Position numbers and translations under genes: made by a program. A stretch of DNA of 64,000 nucleotides from a virus, in the IMG/VR virus record IMGVR_UViG_3300045988_081432, positions 16,198 to 80,197 of that record; one strand, 5' to 3'. Each line of letters starts with the position of its first letter. Positions within the stretch are counted from its first letter, which is position 1. This document shows positions 16,150-46,348 of this stretch, piece by piece. The notes beneath the pieces were generated by a model. That model saw only the letters and a list, made by a program, of their open reading frames with translations. It was not told the origin of the DNA and did no database searches.

Positions 16150-16779
16150 ATGGCGACTAATACACAGAGAATTGAAAACCTTGAAAAGGGTATGTCAGAA
16201 ATGCAGGGTACGCTTGGTGAGATTCTTGCTGCACTACGCGGTTTTTCTACTTCCTCTGCTCAAAATGAATCTGTTGCAGTTGTACACGAGGATAACCCAT
16301 CCGAAGAAGATTATACAGAACCAGAGGACGGAAAGAGCATTCGTGTTCGCAGTCTGTTTAATGGGACTCTTAATCTTACTTATGGGGATAGACGCTTTGT
16401 TACTTTTAATAAGTACGGCGACGAAAATCGTGTGCTATACCGTGACTTGATTCAAATTGTGAATATGAATCACAAGTTTGCGGAAGAAGGATACTTTGAA
16501 ATTGAGGATGCAAGTGCCGTTTATTTTCTTGGTATGACTTATGCTTATAATAATATTATTAAGTATAAAGACATCGAAAATATTTGCAGTTATTCCGATG
16601 ACAAAGTGAAGACTCTAATTGAGAACGCAAGTGACTATCAGAAAAGCCTAGTAGCAAATCGCGTTGCTCATCAAATTGTTGATGGTAAGAACGTAGACTA
16701 CAACAAGGTCAATTTGATTAATAAGTTGTGTTCCGTAGATATTAGTAAGCGCGCAGAGTCTATTCGCTCACTTGCTTAA
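16150..16779 (+). CDS. hypothetical head/connector protein
   Basis: 209-aa ORF in the co-directional late-gene array. Confidence 0.55.
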   Translation: MATNTQRIENLEKGMSEMQGTLGEILAALRGFSTSSAQNESVAVVHEDNPSEEDYTEPEDGKSIRVRSLFNGTLNLTYGDRRFVTFNKYGDENRVLYRDLIQIVNMNHKFAEEGYFEIEDASAVYFLGMTYAYNNIIKYKDIENICSYSDDKVKTLIENASDYQKSLVANRVAHQIVDGKNVDYNKVNLINKLCSVDISKRAESIRSLA

Positions 16780-28117: not shown

Positions 28118-29355
28118 ATGGCGCAATCTCAAAGTGATATTTTTAGTTTTCTAATTACACCTGAATTTGATACCAAAGGTGTCACTGACAGCGGAAAATA
28201 TCTTGAAGAAGAAGTCAAGCAGATAGCAGAAAAGATATCAAATCAGATTAGCGAAGTCATGGGGAGGGGCTTTTCTTTCCCGAAAAATTTCAAAAAAGAT
28301 GATATCAACGAAGTCACAAAACTAGTTGAAAGTTTAGGTGGCAGTGTAAAAAGAACTGGCGAATATATTACATCGTCTTTTAAGGATGCAAGCGGAACAA
28401 CTGTAACGCTAAAGCAAAATTTAAAAGACGCAATAGATGTAGCAGAAGCAGAAAGCCTAAAGGCTGCCAAAAATATTCAAGAAGTAATCAACATAAGAAA
28501 AGAGTTTGAACAACTAAGAACTTCTACCGCTACATATTCTGGCGCAGAGCAAACCAAAGAGCAAAATCAACTTGAACAAAATATTATAAAAAGTATCGAA
28601 GAACAATATAATTACCGACTAAAAATTATTGATGCTCAGAATAGTGGCAACAAAATTCAAGAGAACTATTATACAGAGCTTTTAAATATTGCAAAAGGCG
28701 AAGAACAGGTATACACAATTCAATATAACGGTTCTCAGAATAATATAAAATTTAAAAAACAAGAACTTGCACAAGAAGAACGACTCTATCAAAAAAAATC
28801 TGATTCTGTAAAACAAGAAAATGAACTCGTTAATGCTATTAAACAGTATGCAAAACAATATCAGACTGTCAAGCAATTAGAGAGCAAAGGTCAACAAAAC
28901 ACTCAGGCTTATACTGATGCTAAAAATGCTTTACAGCAGCTAACAAATACTTTAACAACGTATGGTGTTAAAGTTGTAACAAGCTCCGACGGTACAACAA
29001 AACTTGTAGCACAACAAAATTCAATGGCTGACAGCTCCAATAAGGTCAAAACAGCGTTGGACAATGCCAATGGCAGTTTAGCAAAAGCTGATACTGCACA
29101 AAATTCCATATCGAAATCTATTCAGTCTAGTGTAGAGAATTTTATTAAATATCAGGTGGTTATGGAAGCCATCAACAAAATCACTAGCGAATTTACATCT
29201 GCAATTTATGATATGAACCAAGCCATGACACAAGTTCGTATGGTTACAATGGGTAGCTATGAAGATACTGTAGCATTGGCTGATAGTTATACTAAATTGG
29301 CAAAGCAACTTGGTACTACTACGACCACGGTTGCAGAAGGCGCAGATGCTTGGCT
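28118..29355 (+). CDS. tape measure protein, exon 1
   Basis: Coiled-coil N-terminus. The conserved TMP core begins at ...LAKQLGTTTTTVAEGADAWL, after which the frame breaks. Confidence 0.8.
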
Positions 29356-29723
29356 TAAATGTCTAGGTCAAGTAAAATCTCTCTAATTGCTGGAAAGTCC
29401 TTAGAGCTTTGATAACCAAGTTATTATAGTGATATAATAATGGCTGAACTAATCATTCAGGCATGGTAAAATAATCGAAGATTGGATAATCAGCAGCCAA
29501 GATTCTTAAATATTTATAATAAAGCTATTAAAATATTTCAATAGATATGATATAATATTTAAGAATAAGGTTCATCGACTAATTGTAAGGGCAAGTGCTC
29601 TGAAACGGGAGATACCTTGTTAAATTTAACAGATAAAGATATAGTCAGAACTTATGTAGAAATACATAGAAAATCCTATATGGAATCTTTTGATAAGTGG
29701 CGATTATTAAGAGTAACAAATTG
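29356..29723 (+). ncRNA. group I intron without an ORF in the tape-measure gene
   Basis: P1 pairs exon UGGCUU (29351-29356) with AGGUCA (29365-29370), placing U29355-G29366 as the wobble at the splice site. Omega-G is G29723. P7 pairs GACUA (29577-29581) with UAGUC (29642-29646), preceded by AAGAUA. This matches the Tetrahymena-type J8/7-P7 core. Confidence 0.75.
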
Positions 29724-30299
29724 AAGACAGGGTTATAATGCTCAAGAAGCAATGGAGATGCTAAAGCAGTCAACTACGTTGGCTGTTGTTGGTCAATTGG
29801 ACGCAGCTTCTAGCACTGACCAACTTACGGCAATCACAAAATCCTATAATGTAGCTGTAGAAGATACAAGCAAAATCGTAGATAAACTTGTTGCGGTTGA
29901 CTTAAATTATGCCGCTAGTACAGGTGAAATCTCTACAGCATTACAAAAAGTCGCTAGTTCTGCTGGACAGGCAGGGTTAGGGCTTGATAAACTAATCGGT
30001 CTAATTACAATTTCCGAGGAAAAGACTCGACAAGCGCCAGAAGTTATTGGTTCCGCTTGGCAGAGTATTATCGCGCGTATAGGTAAAATCACAGCAAAAG
30101 TAGATTTAGATGACCTTGTTGATGAAAATGGCAAGGTTGTGGCTACAATTAACGATGCTGATAAAGTTTTATCTAAATATGGTATCAATTTAGTTGACAC
30201 TAGTGGTAAAATGAGAGACATGGGAACCATTATGGACGAAATCGGTGCTAAATGGGGTCAAATGTCTACTCTTGAACAAAACCAGTTGGCTTATGTGGT
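29724..30299 (+). CDS. tape measure protein, exon 2
   Basis: The frame is open from 29725, upstream of the track Met at 29752. The spliced sequence reads ...ADAWL-RQGYNAQEAMEMLKQSTTLAVVGQLD..., which is the TMP core. Confidence 0.8.
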
Positions 30300-31335
30300 T
30301 TTAAGTAGCCACAATACGAAGTAATTCGTAGGTGTTTATAACACTACAACATTCCTATATCGGTGAACCCTAAGTTTGTACAAATAAGGGAATACCGAGA
30401 TAATTTTATTATGAAGGATGGTGGAAAAGGAATGGATTTTTATTCCTTGTCACAAGATGAAGTTTCAGTTATTTTAGGTGGGTTGCTTGGCGATTCATGT
30501 TATAAAAAACGAGATAACGTCATCGTATTTTCTCACTCAGCAAAACAAAAAGAATATTTGTCTTGGAAACATGATATATTATCAGATATCTCGTCTGATA
30601 TTCGCACAAGAGTAGTAGGAAAATCTATTATTACAGATGAAGAATTGGTTAATGTGTCATTTTCTACAAAAACAAATAAAAAATATCACTCCGATTATAA
30701 CTCTATAAGAACCCTAATATTTTCCAACGGTAAAAAAACAGTCAATAGAAAATGGCTTAATATGCTCACACCTTTATCATTGGCCGTTTGGTGGATGGAC
30801 GATGGGTGCTTGTCCGTTCATAAGAAAAAAGATGGCGCTATTTCAAGATTTGGTAAATTAAGTACAAATGGATTCTCATACGAAGAGCAAAAAATTATGA
30901 AGGATTATTTCAAGACGGTTTGGGATATTGATGTAAAAATAACCCCAGAAAAGGGAAATTATTTCTTGAGATTTACAGTCCCGAACTTAAAAAAACTATT
31001 CTTAATTATATATCCATTTGTAATGCAAGTGCCAGACATGATTTATAAGATAAATATGAAATATAAACTAGAAAAACTGAGTGATGACGACGAGTATAAA
31101 GTAATACAAACTATTATATACGATACTCTCGATAATAAAAAATCGTAACGACTAAACGAGGAATGCTCCTTATATCAAACACATCTCTTATTGTTGGGAT
31201 GTGTTTTGTTGTATAAGGATGAAAATATAGTCTGAACTATAAGGAAACTTATAGAAGAGCGGTCAAGTGTAAAGACACTTTTAAGGAGAACCGTTCTCGC
31301 CTATTTTAATAATAGGTCACAAAAGTAACAGATTG
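30300..31335 (+). mobile_element. group I intron carrying a LAGLIDADG homing endonuclease
   Basis: P1 pairs exon UGUGGU (30294-30299) with GCCACA (30308-30313), with U30299-G30308 as the wobble. Omega-G is G31335. P7 pairs GACUA (31150-31154) with UAGUC (31228-31232), preceded by AAAAUA. An internal ORF lies at 30363..31148. Confidence 0.75.
30363..31148 (+). CDS. double-motif LAGLIDADG homing endonuclease (intron-encoded)
   Basis: Two motifs are present, ILGGLLGDSCY and AVWWMDDGCL. The start may be an internal ATG near 30412. Confidence 0.8.
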   Translation: MNPKFVQIREYRDNFIMKDGGKGMDFYSLSQDEVSVILGGLLGDSCYKKRDNVIVFSHSAKQKEYLSWKHDILSDISSDIRTRVVGKSIITDEELVNVSFSTKTNKKYHSDYNSIRTLIFSNGKKTVNRKWLNMLTPLSLAVWWMDDGCLSVHKKKDGAISRFGKLSTNGFSYEEQKIMKDYFKTVWDIDVKITPEKGNYFLRFTVPNLKKLFLIIYPFVMQVPDMIYKINMKYKLEKLSDDDEYKVIQTIIYDTLDNKKS

Positions 31336-42006: not shown

Positions 42007-44172
42007 ATGCCTAAATATTCTGAAAATTTGAATCTAAGACTAGATGACCCTGTTGCCGACGTATCACAGTTGTCAAGAAACTGGTTTGAGGCTAACTTCG
42101 GATATACCGATAGTAACATGACCAAAATTGATTCTGCCTATAAAGCAATGAAAGATGATATAGCTGATACTCCAACAAAATCTGGCGTTGGAGCTACTGG
42201 TGACTGGGATATCAATGTTACTGGCTCTGCCAATAGCGCTGTTCATGATGGAGTAGGAAACGACATCTCTTCTTCTTATATAACTGGTATATCAGTCGGA
42301 AACACCTCTATTACTTATACAAAAGGAGACGGAACCGACCAAGAAGAGACTATTAAAACAGATAAAACTTTGAGTATTAAAGGAATGGCTGCGGACGCAA
42401 AGGCAACGGGAGACTTGATTAAGAAATCTATCTATCCTACACTTGTGGTAAGTGTTACTGCTGGTTCATCTGTTACCGTTACGAAGGACTCTTATTCGTT
42501 CTCTGGTACTACTGACGACAAAGGCAAAGTAGAGTTTAACCTCCCCGCATTGGGACGATGGGATATTTCTGCAAGTCATAATGGTAGAACCGTAACCGAC
42601 TTCATTGATATTGATGTTCTTGCTAAAAGGTATACTATCAGTTTGGTATATTTTAACGCAAACTTAGTTGTTAGTGCTCCAACTAATGCCGTTGTGACTG
42701 CTATTTCTGGACACTATCAGTATACTAAGACCTCTGGTTCTGAAGGAAACGCTACTTTTGACATTAATCACGCTGGCAATTATACTGTTACAGCCACAAT
42801 GAATACCGCCACTTCCAATCCTGTGCCTGTAGATATTACAGAAGATGGTGGCAATTATAGCGCCGAGGCAGTATTCCGCACTATTACAGTAACTTGTAAC
42901 TCCGGTAGCTCTATTACAGTCCAAAAAGATGAAGAGGTCTTAACCGGTAATAGTACAGGCGTCCCTGTTAAATTTTATATTCCATCTACCGGCTCTTGGA
43001 CTGTAACAGCAACGCTGGGTGAAAATGTCGCCCAAGAAGAAATTAACGTAGTAGACTTTACCGACTATCCTATTACACTAAATTATGCTAGAATTTTTGG
43101 TGTAGTATGGGCTTATTCTAATTCTTCTACCGCGCTTGCTCGTGTTACAAAAGCTAATGACCCGAATAACTATGTAAATACAGATATTACTACCAGTCCC
43201 TCTCCCGCTGTAGGTACTGGTTCTGGTAGTAGTCCATTTGACGATTATATGCCGTGGAAGGGTATGGACGAATATAACATCGTTAACGGTGTTGTTGGGG
43301 CAAAATATGGCGAAGCTGGATTCTCTCGTAGTTCTAACGATGTAATGGTATATATTCCTGAATTTTGGTATAAGGTCGTAGACAATGGTAGCGCAAGCAA
43401 GCGTTACTTTTACATTGCAAATAAGGCAACAGATGGATTCGAGAAACATCCTGGTTCTGGGCGCTATGTAGGTCGTTATAATACGTCTAACAATCGTTCC
43501 GTATCTCCTTCGACGCCTTACATTAATATGAGTCGTGCATCTGCTCGTAATGGGGCAAGAGGCAAGGGAAACAAGTGGGCGCTATACGATTACGCTTCTT
43601 GGTGTGCTGTATGGTTACTTTATATAATAGAATATGCGGACTGGAACAGCCAGAGCAAAATTGGTAGAGGGTATGTAGATAACAACATCAATCTAATTGC
43701 TTCTGGCTATACTGACAGCATGACTTATCATACTGGACGTGTCTCTGGTTCTGATGGCTCTACCTCAGTGCAATATCGCCATATTGAGAACCCTTGGGGA
43801 AACGTCTACGAGTGGATTGATGGCATAAACTTTAGTGGTAATGGAGTATATATTTGTACTGATATTTCTAAATACGCCGATGATACCGTCACAAACTATA
43901 CTTATGCCGGCGCTAAAACTCAATCTAGCGGATACATCTCTATGACTGGATATTCTTCCACATATCCATGGAGTTTTTATCCAACTAGTACCAGTGGCAG
44001 CGAAACAACATATATCCCTGACTACTTTTACTCTGGCGGCGGTTGGCGTGTTTTGTGTGTTGGTGGTGATTGGGACGGTGGGTCGAGGGCCGGTCTGTTC
44101 TATTTCTATGCGGACGTTGGTTCTAGCAGCTCGAGCTCGAGCATCGGGGCGCGGCTCCTTTTCGTCCCCTAA
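42007..44172 (+). CDS. tail fibre/receptor-binding protein and DGR target, with a C-type-lectin/FGE-fold C-terminus
   Basis: ATG 42007 follows AAGGAG. It has three tandem ~60-aa Ig-like repeats. The C-terminal domain contains WALYDYASWCAVWLL, NPWGNVYEWIDG and GGGWRVLCVGGDWDGGSRAGLFYF...IGARLLF. The last 43 codons form the VR. Confidence 0.75.
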   Translation: MPKYSENLNLRLDDPVADVSQLSRNWFEANFGYTDSNMTKIDSAYKAMKDDIADTPTKSGVGATGDWDINVTGSANSAVHDGVGNDISSSYITGISVGNTSITYTKGDGTDQEETIKTDKTLSIKGMAADAKATGDLIKKSIYPTLVVSVTAGSSVTVTKDSYSFSGTTDDKGKVEFNLPALGRWDISASHNGRTVTDFIDIDVLAKRYTISLVYFNANLVVSAPTNAVVTAISGHYQYTKTSGSEGNATFDINHAGNYTVTATMNTATSNPVPVDITEDGGNYSAEAVFRTITVTCNSGSSITVQKDEEVLTGNSTGVPVKFYIPSTGSWTVTATLGENVAQEEINVVDFTDYPITLNYARIFGVVWAYSNSSTALARVTKANDPNNYVNTDITTSPSPAVGTGSGSSPFDDYMPWKGMDEYNIVNGVVGAKYGEAGFSRSSNDVMVYIPEFWYKVVDNGSASKRYFYIANKATDGFEKHPGSGRYVGRYNTSNNRSVSPSTPYINMSRASARNGARGKGNKWALYDYASWCAVWLLYIIEYADWNSQSKIGRGYVDNNINLIASGYTDSMTYHTGRVSGSDGSTSVQYRHIENPWGNVYEWIDGINFSGNGVYICTDISKYADDTVTNYTYAGAKTQSSGYISMTGYSSTYPWSFYPTSTSGSETTYIPDYFYSGGGWRVLCVGGDWDGGSRAGLFYFYADVGSSSSSSSIGARLLFVP
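44030..44157 (+). repeat. DGR variable region (VR)
   Basis: 128 nt that aligns with 44334-44461 at an offset of 304. There are 14 mismatches, and 13 of them sit opposite adenines in the downstream copy. Confidence 0.85.
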
Positions 44173-44180
44173 TGGGGGAC

Positions 44181-44203
44181 TGGGGGTCGCAACCCCCATT
44201 TTT
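44181..44203 (+). terminator. GC hairpin plus T-run immediately after the VR; a DGR target-recognition hairpin and/or terminator
   Basis: TGGGGGT-cgca-ACCCCCA forms a 7-bp stem with a 4-nt loop, followed by TTTTT. Confidence 0.6.
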
Positions 44204-44333
44204 AATGATTATTTAGACGCTTTCGCTTGTTTTATCTAAATGGCTCCAAGATAAAACAGACTTTTTATATTTTGGGATTGTTTGTGCTGCGCCCGATGTT
44301 CTACTAGGCATTCGACGCTAGTGGAAAACGCTG

Positions 44334-44461
44334 ACTCTGGCAGCGGTTGGCGTGTTTTGTATGTTGGTGGTGATTGGAACGGTGGGTCGAATGCCGGTCT
44401 GTTCTATTTCAATGCGAACAATGATTCTAGCAACTCGAACTCGAACATCGGGGCGCGGCTA
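44334..44461 (+). repeat. DGR template region (TR)
   Basis: This is the invariant donor copy. It contains 25 adenines by hand count and 8 AAY codons in the frame equivalent to the VR. It lies directly upstream of the RT. Confidence 0.85.
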
Positions 44462-44560
44462 CTTGTTTATTCTCCGTTTATTATCGCACAAACTCTCCCG
44501 CACCACTTGGTGAAAATATTGCCAATTAGGAAGCGAATTAGTAGGTTTATTCTCGAAAAT

Positions 44561-45748
44561 TTGCGCGGCAAACAAGGAGATGTTTTTATTCCTAAAAGAA
44601 AAGGTTATTTATATGAAAAAATGCTAAATAAAGAGCAAATTCGCTTTATCATTCAAGAAGCGGCAAGAGGGAAAACAAATAGAAGAGAAGTTCGCCGTGT
44701 ATTGAAAAATTTAGATTTATATGTAGACAAAACATACGAGATGCTGGTTACGGAGTCGTTTAAGCCATCTGTCCCGCATGAAAAAGAAATCTATGACGTA
44801 AGCAGTCAAAAGGTCAGAATTATCAAAACAGTACCATTTTGGCCTGATGGAATTATGCATTGGCTTATTGTTGATGCTCTAAAACCTATCTTTATGAAAG
44901 GTATGTATGATTGGTCTTGTGCTTCTATTCCCGGAAGAGGCGGGGTAAAAGTCCAAAAGAAACTGCAAAAATTTATTAGAACAAGCAAAAAGGCTAAATA
45001 TGCCGCCGAATTAGATGTCTCGAAATACTATCCGTCAATATCTACTGATACCCTAATAGAATTATTAAGAAGAAAAGTAAAAGATAAGAAAATGATTAAA
45101 ATAGTTCAGGATATAGCGGAATCTTGCGGTGGAGGTCTAGCGATAGGATACTATATTTGTCAATGGCTGGCGAACTTTTATCTGGAATCACTAGACCATT
45201 ATATTGCATCTCTGCCCGGTGTAGATTGTTACACCAGATATATGGATAATATAACATTGATAGGGGCAAACAAAAAACTGTTACATGAAGCAAGAAGAAA
45301 AATAGAAATGTTTTTAAAAGATAAATTGTCATTAAAACTAAAGGGAAATTGGCAAGTATATAGATTATCTTTTACAAGAAAAGTTTCCCAAAAACACCTT
45401 CTTCTAGACAAAAAACAACAAAGACTAAGAAAACCTAGGTTAGTATCTGCTGTTGGATGTAGATTCGCTAAGACATATACTATTGTAAGAAAGAGAAATT
45501 TTCTACGTTTAACCAGACAAAGCAGAAAAATTCAAAAGAAGCAAAACAAACATTTAAAAATATCTTTTAACATGGCGACGGGTTTTATAAGCAGAATCGC
45601 ACAATTAACAAGGTGCGACAGTCAATATGCCAAAGAAAAATACGTTTATTCAATAAACATGAAGCAATTAAAGGAGGTTATCAGAAATGAAAGTAAACGC
45701 AAGCTGTGCTCCAAACAAAAGCTTTCGTGTAGAGGAAATCCCGAATAA
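44561..45748 (+). CDS. DGR-type reverse transcriptase; start uncertain (TTG 44561, ATT 44588 or ATG 44621)
   Basis: The N-terminus is KRKGYLYEKM...AARGK. RT motifs present are SIPGRGG, AELDVSKYYPSI, GLAIGYYICQWLANFY (a variant of the DGR IGxxxSQ motif) and RYMDNITLIG (motif C reads YMDN rather than YxDD). The track ORF start at 44282 is read-through of the TR. Confidence 0.8.
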   Translation: MRGKQGDVFIPKRKGYLYEKMLNKEQIRFIIQEAARGKTNRREVRRVLKNLDLYVDKTYEMLVTESFKPSVPHEKEIYDVSSQKVRIIKTVPFWPDGIMHWLIVDALKPIFMKGMYDWSCASIPGRGGVKVQKKLQKFIRTSKKAKYAAELDVSKYYPSISTDTLIELLRRKVKDKKMIKIVQDIAESCGGGLAIGYYICQWLANFYLESLDHYIASLPGVDCYTRYMDNITLIGANKKLLHEARRKIEMFLKDKLSLKLKGNWQVYRLSFTRKVSQKHLLLDKKQQRLRKPRLVSAVGCRFAKTYTIVRKRNFLRLTRQSRKIQKKQNKHLKISFNMATGFISRIAQLTRCDSQYAKEKYVYSINMKQLKEVIRNESKRKLCSKQKLSCRGNPE

Positions 45749-46091: not shown

Positions 46092-46214
46092 ATGCCTAAA
46101 ATTTATGCAGAACTCATTCGTAAAGGATTCAAAACTATTGACGATGTTCCTGTTTCTATCAGGGAAGAAGTAGAAAAGATTCTCGCAGAGAGCACTCATT
46201 GTGCGCTCTCTTGA
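46092..46214 (+). CDS. small conserved-looking phage protein of 40 aa, paralogue of the next ORF (not in the track)
   Basis: Translation is MPKIYAELIRKGFKTIDDVPVSIREEVEKILAESTHCALS. It shares an xIYAxLIxKGxKTIxxVPxxIREEV pattern with 46256..46348. Confidence 0.45.
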   Translation: MPKIYAELIRKGFKTIDDVPVSIREEVEKILAESTHCALS

Positions 46215-46255
46215 ATTTATTTGTTAAATTATTTATAAGAAAAGGAGATAATATT

Positions 46256-46348
46256 ATGGCTATTATTTATGCTACTCTAATTGTTAAAGGTAAAAAGACT
46301 ATTAACCAAGTCCCCGCAATCATTCGTGAACAGGTAAAGAAATCCTAA
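46256..46348 (+). CDS. small phage protein of 30 aa, paralogue of the previous ORF (not in the track)
   Basis: Translation is MAIIYATLIVKGKKTINQVPAIIREQVKKS. An AAAGGAGA RBS lies upstream. Confidence 0.45.
   Translation: MAIIYATLIVKGKKTINQVPAIIREQVKKS

Follow-up and report, generated by a model that had tools for sequence, protein, structure and literature searches.

Why should the 3′ end of a phage tail-fibre gene recur, altered almost only at adenines, a few hundred nucleotides (nt) downstream and just in front of a gene for a reverse transcriptase (RT)? This question is raised by a stretch of viral DNA of 64,000 nt (IMG/VR record IMGVR_UViG_3300045988_081432, positions 16,198 to 80,197), which is called the window in the following and whose own numbering is used for all coordinates. 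Our analysis points to an active diversity-generating retroelement (DGR) composed of a target gene, a template repeat (TR) and an RT, of the type without the accessory protein Avd, which diversifies the tip of the tail fibre via a variable repeat (VR) in the target gene. We assign a probability of about 0.93 to this reading. All features of the locus are encoded on the plus strand.

Machine alignment identified the VR (44030..44160) and the non-coding TR (44334..44464) as an ungapped direct repeat of 131 nt with an offset of 304 nt. The two copies differ at 14/131 positions. Read from TR to VR, these are ten changes of A to G, two of A to T, one of A to C and one of T to G, and no G or C of the TR is affected. 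Mismatches thus occur at 13/25 TR adenines versus 1/106 non-adenines (Fisher's exact test, one-sided p = 2.3e-10). In the reading frame of the VR, the TR adenines occupy first, second and third codon positions 11, 13 and 1 times, respectively, and eight AAY codons are present in the TR. An initial annotation, made from the letters alone, had already described a repeat core of 128 nt (44030-44157) with 14 mismatches, 13 of them at adenines of the downstream copy, and the machine alignment confirmed this core together with the mismatch types, the fraction of altered adenines, the absence of G or C changes and the number of AAY codons. The eleven amino acid replacements that it listed (S/Y/N/N/N/N/N/D/N/N/N to G/C/D/R/Y/D/V/G/S/S/S) were exactly right, and an even spread of mismatches over all four bases, which would have spoken against the adenine-specific signature, was not observed. 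The annotation had further placed the repeat in the last 128 nt of a 722-aa gene; the repeat as such stood, but it stops 12 nt before the stop codon, and the encoded protein has a length of 721 amino acids (aa).

The target gene (42007..44172, stop codon TAA at 44170-44172) encodes a phage tail (fibre) protein with homology to PHROG 5302 'tail protein' (E-value 1.4e-78), and a ribosome-binding site AAGGAG is located 8 nt upstream of its ATG at 42007. Because searches of Pfam, NCBIfam and PDB sequences gave no match for the C-terminal 340 aa (residues 382-721, 43150..44169), the fold of the tip was taken from structure prediction. The AlphaFold2 model of this part, built on 60 homologues, reached a predicted local distance difference test score (pLDDT) of 96.5 and a predicted template modelling score (pTM) of 0.95. 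A Foldseek search against PDB returned TaqVP (5VF4) as top match (E-value 7e-11, probability 1.0), followed by Treponema TvpA (2Y3C), Bordetella phage Mtd (1YU0-4), FGE, PvdO and EgtB. The modelled tip shows the C-type-lectin/FGE fold that is used by DGR variable proteins, as the initial annotation had proposed, and the VR is located on this fold at the 3′ end of the gene, as is typical of DGR targets. About 1,259 homologues of the C-terminal domain were identified, which are joined to diverse N-terminal parts.

The RT gene (44588..45748) encodes 386 aa from an ATT at 44588, or 395 aa from an alternative TTG at 44561, and contains the motifs IGYYICQ and YMDN. It matches Pfam RVT_1 (1.7e-9) and PHROG 1423 (7e-77) and is the only RT in the window. 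The best match among PDB sequences is the RT of a Bordetella phage, bRT (8ub7_A, E-value 9e-13), with a group II RT behind it at 3e-8. The AlphaFold2 model of the RT (pLDDT 86.7) likewise has its best fold match in 8ub7_A, with a template modelling (TM) score of 0.90 normalised to bRT and a root-mean-square deviation of 2.7 Å. By best match in sequence and in modelled fold the enzyme is therefore placed in the DGR group of RTs, in agreement with the initial annotation. In the sequence alignment we also found counterparts of bRT R74 and I181, two residues that promote adenine mutagenesis. The protein is strongly basic, with 35 K/R versus 6 D/E in its last 125 residues; that this part compensates for the missing basic Avd is speculation.

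The evidence for activity comes from comparison with related loci, which are denoted here by L and a number. The sister phage L001 encodes an RT with 97% identity, in a region with 91% DNA identity, and its VR/TR pair shows 15/15 mismatches at TR adenines over 136 nt. The TRs of the window and of L001 differ at four non-adenine sites, and at each of them the base found in the VR is that of its own TR (4/4). The two VRs differ from each other at 14/25 shared TR adenines and at 1/96 shared non-adenines. Because each VR follows its own TR at non-adenine sites, information must have passed from the TR to the VR after the divergence of the two phages. Furthermore, 47 of the 52 related loci with enough upstream sequence possess a VR/TR pair of 90-142 nt, with the copies 220-383 nt apart and the mismatches almost exclusively at TR adenines.

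The same pattern is found among natural alleles of the target protein. The exact protein of the window was found on 8-9 public contigs, and 20 members make up its cluster at 90% identity. In 15 members of this cluster, 13/14 columns with at least four residue types fall in the VR, which is hypervariable at residues 684-713 on codons with TR adenines. Two alleles from other assemblies (P0397 and P0401, 98% identical proteins) differ from the window protein in 14 and 13 residues, respectively; the 17 TR-adenine codons account for 11 and 10 of these (hypergeometric p of 7e-18 and 6e-16). At the protein level, the hypervariability of natural alleles thus coincides with the TR-adenine codons; a monomorphic VR combined with an RT outside the DGR group, named in the initial annotation as the contrary outcome, was not found. 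Outside the VR, most differences within the 90% cluster seem to be concentrated in one block of the lectin-fold domain (43480-43760, residues ~494-590; e.g. NTSNNRSVSPSTPYINMSRASARNG versus the consensus NTGSGNYSRTGLFPYVNITRQTARSG), which looks like the result of recombinational mosaicism and not of DGR action.

Features known from DGR target sites follow at the 3′ end of the VR. The VR closes with a constant GC-rich segment (GGGGCGCGGCTCCTT, 44146..44160) that resembles the initiation of mutagenic homing (IMH) element. VR and TR have the GC-rich end GGGGCGCGGCT in common, after which the VR continues with CCTTTTC and the TR with ACTTGTT, and past this end the homology decays, as it does with IMH and IMH*. 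In 25 relatives the VR always reads CTCCT, and the TR carries A (or G) at the corresponding position. The A to C change between TR 44461 and VR 44157 belongs here. All relatives examined show a difference here, with C throughout in the VR and with A in the TR, or G in two of them, and because it is present in every one of them it is probably a fixed IMH*/IMH-like marker of TR and VR and not a mutagenesis event. Without this marker, 12/24 mutable TR adenines are changed.

Two hairpins were predicted downstream by folding of the DNA. Hairpin 1 (44164..44180, GTCCCC/GGGGAC with loop TAATG) spans the stop codon of the target gene. It is conserved throughout the clade, where changes on one side of the stem are compensated on the other, as in L198 (CTCCCC/GGGGAG). 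Hairpin 2 (44181..44203) consists of TGGGGGT-CGCA-ACCCCCA (44181-44198) followed by a terminator-like TTTTT, and in 25 relatives its CGCA loop is invariant and its closing pair covaries from T:A to C:G. Since the T-run is often absent in relatives, hairpin 2 is more than a terminator, and it is likely a target-recognition hairpin or cruciform. For the Bordetella phage BPP-1 and other phage DGRs, a hairpin with a GC stem of 7-10 bp and a 4-nt loop of sequence-dependent function, positioned 4-34 bp past the VR, has been described (PMC3240598), and hairpin 2 fits this description in stem, loop size and position. The locus thus contains both an IMH-type GC-rich end with a TR/VR discriminator and a downstream GC hairpin with a 4-nt loop, as expected of a DGR. 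We also noted a perfect 10-bp inverted repeat (TGTTTTATCT ... AGATAAAACA, 44228-44258) between the VR terminator and the start of the DGR RNA, which is kept in L001, L126 and L124, i.e. also in both phages without an RT.

The TR begins only ~160 nt after the stop codon of the target gene and is followed by a known RNA motif. The RNA RT-18 (Rfam RF03021) was detected at 44501..44579 with 68.7 bits (gathering score 41.3), the match extending over all 84 model positions (1-84), and lies directly upstream of the RT in 19/19 loci tested. It consists of a hairpin CACC-ACUU-GGUG, the sequence AAAAUA, a long stem interrupted by an internal loop (UAGUAG/CGAAA), and a tail, AAACAAGGAG, which contains the ribosome-binding site of the RT. 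The fold of the whole region was not significantly more stable than that of shuffled sequences (z = -1.2), and our claims on RNA structure are restricted to individual covarying helices. One of these, a clamp outside the Rfam model, brackets the TR and is formed by a 5′ strand (GGGAUUGUUUGUGC, 44274..44287; alignment A6, pair count) and a 3′ strand (GCACAAACUCUCCC, 44486..44499). In this clamp 8/12 pairs change on both sides, and 98.9% of the alignment cells are paired versus 31-58% with a slid partner. The 3′ strand is directly followed by the CACC-ACUU-GGUG stem-loop and AAAAUA of RT-18.

A second helix connects the 3′ flank of the TR with the tail of RT-18. The conserved flank CUUGUUU (44462..44468), a candidate template strand, pairs with AAACAAG (44570-44576), and in an anchored alignment (A7) 92% of the cells are paired versus 44-71% when slid, with two covarying pairs (G:C/U:A/A:U and U:A/C:G). 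By analogy, and with moderate support, this helix may be the counterpart of the template:primer duplex between TR and spacer (TR:Sp) in the Bordetella phage BPP-1. RNA folding revealed complementarity between a further segment (44289..44300) and positions 44444-44456 at the GC-rich 3′ end of the TR. The energy z of this duplex is negative in 17/17 loci scored, and matching changes occur in L205, L206 and L194. This pairing was rejected as a primer duplex; the TR adenines 44445 and 44447 are situated inside it and are mutagenised in VRs, and therefore cDNA synthesis must start 3′ of them. It might represent a resting state of the RNA in which the initiation site is masked.

Several observations weigh against an active DGR. 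The activity itself is something that we infer from comparative genomics, and one mismatch of the repeat pair, the T to G change between TR 44392 and VR 44088, is not at an adenine. The CGCA loop of hairpin 2 departs from the GRNA consensus given in PMC3240598. At the conserved start position of the RT, ATT and not ATG is found. No match to Avd was obtained with Pfam, NCBIfam or PHROGs among the open reading frames (ORFs) between 36.9 and 47.3 kb, and no other accessory gene was recognised within ~4 kb either. Avd is present in 74% of DGRs and not universal. The YxDD box, a general feature of RTs that is not specific to DGRs, is not conserved, since the catalytic box reads YMDN where the aligned bRT has YMDD. 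The Asn takes the position of D216, one of the three catalytic aspartates of bRT (10.1101/2023.10.23.563531). The DGR RT signature [I/V/L]GxxxSQ (PMC7826257) is changed as well, as IGYYICQ keeps I, G and Q and replaces Ser by Cys, invariantly across the clade.

The YMDN box and the ATT start would be in line with a DGR that was once active and is now dead, in which VR and TR are fossils and the RT no longer works in the window phage. A TR with six adenines fewer than that of L001, and the dispensability of the cassette, of which TR and RT were deleted in L126 and L124, would also be in line with such decay. We nevertheless consider it improbable. The two 98%-identical alleles differ from the window almost only at TR-adenine codons and share the window-specific G691 (TR codon GGT). 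The RT ORF is intact and conserved over more than 70 loci with an invariant (Y/H)MDN, which was found in 74/79 clade loci in which the motif could be located; the remaining five, at 44-48% identity, keep YMDD. Moreover, 43/48 of the (Y/H)MDN loci with enough upstream sequence possess an adenine-specific VR/TR pair, and for this reason RTs with YMDN appear to be functional. Similar boxes also occur further away: among 150 distant RT representatives (31-49% identity), 114 of which had recognisable motifs, 88 show the canonical IGxxxSQ and YxDD, which supports the DGR affinity of the RT, and 18 from several subgroups read xxDN. We found no mention of the YMDN substitution in the literature searched.

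The ATT start is not peculiar to the window either. Homologues of the RT begin with MPKR-G-Y-L-Y, and this start aligns with the ATT at 44588, 8 nt past an AAGGAG. The conserved first codon is ATG in 60, ATC in 7 and ATT in 3 relatives, so that ATT or ATC occurs in 10/72, and in L210 a stop six codons upstream leaves ATT as the sole start candidate. ATT 44588 probably serves as a weak, non-canonical start and so holds down the amount of RT. We also considered a programmed frameshift after initiation at ATG 44580, which is out of frame, but rejected it, as the ribosome-binding site directly abuts this ATG (spacing of 0 nt) and nothing similar exists in L210.

The composition of the TR itself deserves a separate remark. 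Six of the ten differences between the window TR (44334-44386) and that of L001 (10053-10105) are A in L001 and G (5) or C (1) in the window, and the total adenine count is 25 in the window versus 31 in L001, so that the window TR resembles a partly adenine-mutagenised copy. The pattern suggests that the TR is now and then a target itself, or that VR-to-TR conversion takes place. Because of the adenines lost relative to L001, residue 691 is fixed as Gly in the sublineage of the window; it is hypervariable in other sublineages.

The phages without the cassette were found in searches for further relatives. A near-identity search of a phage GenBank collection returned no relative of the cassette, the sole match being one of 76% in the lysin region, and an exact search of IMG/VR with a 37-mer of IMH plus hairpin found nothing. 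An 18-base VR/TR pattern (17 specified bases and one N) matched 120 loci on metagenome contigs, with chance hits among those checked, and only L126 (3430-3560) and L124 (670-800) from IMG/VR (UViG 3300045988_074139 and _088154) proved to be related. Both lack the equivalent of positions 44273-45617 of the window, which hold the TR and RT-18 as well as most of the RT, and both keep the fibre gene, a diversified VR, the two hairpins and the next 70 nt. A remnant of the RT 3′ end is still recognisable, where it overlaps the start region of the next gene, and the missing stretch is thus a deletion, whose left edge maps no more than 2 nt from where the 5′ clamp strand begins. Relative to the window, the VRs of L126 and L124 carry insertions of 12 and 18 nt.

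Two other explanations are far less probable than a dead element. The repeat could have arisen when the 3′ end of the gene was duplicated in the ordinary way and the copies diverged by normal mutation, lying by chance next to an unrelated RT from a group II intron, a retron or a defence system, for which weak matches to NCBIfam models of RTs (group II intron, Drt3a, retron) could be cited. All of these scores are far under the cut-offs, bRT is the top match in sequence and in fold, and neither a group II intron RNA nor a retron non-coding RNA was found, Rfam giving only RT-18 at the locus. Normal divergence would also have to account for 13/14 mismatches at the adenines of one copy only, for a VR that evolves in concert with its own TR and for the same arrangement in 47 loci, and as far as the present data reach we regard this explanation as refuted. 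Diversification of the VR in trans, by another DGR with its RT elsewhere in the phage or in the host, might explain why the VRs of L126 and L124 differ from each other and from the window without a local TR and RT, but hardly seems credible given the single RT in the window, the match of each VR to the adjacent TR at non-adenine positions, the conserved order with RT-18 and RT directly after the TR, and the RT remnant in L126 and L124, which suggests a recent deletion after earlier diversification.

If the locus is an active DGR, as we think, a mechanism can be proposed, for which we infer the RNA intermediate, priming in cis and the nucleotide at which it occurs, what the hairpins do, the effect on receptor binding and the independence from an accessory protein. 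Transcription would run from ~44274 to the RT gene. The RNA would then fold so that the helix 44274-44287/44486-44499 encloses the TR, with the RT-18 domain just 3′ of it. The RT (44588-45748) would synthesise TR cDNA that is faithful at U, C and G and misincorporates opposite adenines. This cDNA would replace the VR (44030-44160), guided by the constant GC-rich VR end and the twin GC hairpins downstream. As a result, ~12-17 codons on the ligand-binding face of the lectin-fold tip would be randomised with the scaffold preserved, presumably altering receptor specificity.

A more far-reaching interpretation combines these elements, and we regard it as tentative and, taken as a whole, doubtful. 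According to this interpretation, a large clade of gut-phage DGRs would work without Avd, with an RT that still performs adenine mutagenesis despite YMDN and CQ. Its RNA would use the building blocks of BPP-1, namely a stop duplex that brackets the TR, a stem-loop plus adenosines and a template:primer duplex, in permuted order. The primer strand would be the Shine-Dalgarno tail of the RT (AAACAAGGAG, 44570-44579), and priming and translation of the RT would therefore be mutually exclusive, with the weak ATT start further throttling the enzyme.

The start of the RT gene is also of relevance for gene annotation. A mechanically determined ORF (44282-45748, 488 aa) runs in frame through the TR into the RT with no stop between them, and the same fusion of TR and RT is seen in L001 (10001-11467) and L219 (4315-5742). 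Public gene calls of the same locus give 488 and 475 aa. ORF finders and public gene calls therefore yield an overlong RT, and the N-terminus of these RTs of 475-488 aa is a translated TR and hence an annotation artefact. Gene callers thus routinely fuse the TR to the RT ORF.

The genomic neighbourhood is that of a tail module. Upstream of the target gene, genes for a minor tail protein and a Gp80-like fibre protein are encoded, and downstream neighbours are XkdX-like small proteins and a GH25 lysin. Just upstream of the lysin, two tandem overlapping small ORFs (46092-46214, 40 aa; 46199-46348, 49 aa), both with hits to PHROG 1382, look like a duplicated XkdX-like tail-associated protein. A downstream protein of 132 aa was considered as a substitute for Avd and rejected; it is acidic, is kept where the RT is deleted, and sits with the XkdX-like small proteins and the lysin. 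Elsewhere in the window, a group I catalytic intron (29313-29669, plus strand; Rfam RF00028, 69.5 bits) is located in the structural module between the ORFs 28118-29386 and 29752-30324, and it probably splits a phage gene. Other catalytic RNAs were seen in the relatives, with a twister-sister ribozyme on the minus strand of L178 (8902-8984, 80.4 bits) and a group I intron on the minus strand of L001 (20341-20578) beside an intein-containing DNA polymerase III alpha gene.

For the phage, the locus implies rapid, programmed variation of the receptor-binding fibre tip and hence host-range plasticity in a lineage of gut-type Clostridia phages. Such DGRs are a familiar type and occur in large numbers in gut phages. 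The DGR of the window is a genuine but fairly ordinary example, and its architecture without Avd is already known. Of specialist interest are the D to N and S to C changes of the active site in an apparently active clade, the lack of Avd together with BPP-1-like RNA elements, and the non-ATG start. The initial annotation had not noticed the lack of Avd, the altered RT motifs, the twin hairpins past the VR or the overlong RT ORF. The clade offers a natural test case for mutagenic retrohoming without Avd and for the extent to which the canonical RT active site is required.

Among known systems, the closest architecture is 'Architecture A'. In Wu et al. 2018 (PMC5758913), this type, with a TR-RT core A1 and without Avd, makes up 29% of 372 curated DGRs, and an Avd-independent variant of mutagenic retrohoming is proposed there. 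The window cassette has the same composition of target, TR and RT with no accessory gene. TaqVP of Thermus aquaticus (PDB 5VF4) resembles the target in being a variable protein with C-type-lectin fold and C-terminal VR, but the identity is only 16-18% and the TM score ~0.5, and TaqVP is bacterial whereas the target of the window is a phage tail fibre.

The DGR of BPP-1 (mtd-avd-TR-brt) shares with the window a phage tail-fibre target, a C-terminal VR on a C-type-lectin fold, adenine-specific mismatches, a constant GC-rich 3′ end of the VR with a TR/VR discriminator and a GC-rich hairpin with 4-nt loop past the VR, and the window RT model superposes on bRT as described above. The succession of a duplex of TR-flanking sequences, a small stem-loop and adenosines is similar to the 'cPRT Stop' of BPP-1, in which the adenosines make A-minor contacts, as described in a study that surveyed only Avd-bearing DGRs (10.1101/2023.10.23.563531). 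In contrast to BPP-1, the window has no avd gene and its target shows no detectable sequence similarity to Mtd. Its RT carries YMDN and IGxxxCQ instead of YMDD and IGxxxSQ and has 386 aa compared to 328 aa of bRT, and its C-terminal part is very basic. Past the VR there are two hairpins, with a CGCA loop, and the candidate primer strand is situated 3′ of the clamp and stem-loop, whereas it is 5′ in BPP-1. The spacer RNA is RT-18, in contrast to RT-10 of BPP-1. The original description of these RNA motifs linked RT-10 alone to a DGR, namely that of BPP-1, and left the function of RT-18 and of the other RT motifs open (Weinberg et al. 2017, PMC5737381). The RNA of the window agrees with the Rfam RT-18 family in its full-length match above the gathering score and its position adjoining an RT gene. 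In addition, it is located between a verified TR and the RT in 19/19 loci and is flanked by the clamp and the TR-flank/tail helix outside the Rfam model. The orphan motif RT-18 thereby gains a concrete role and context.

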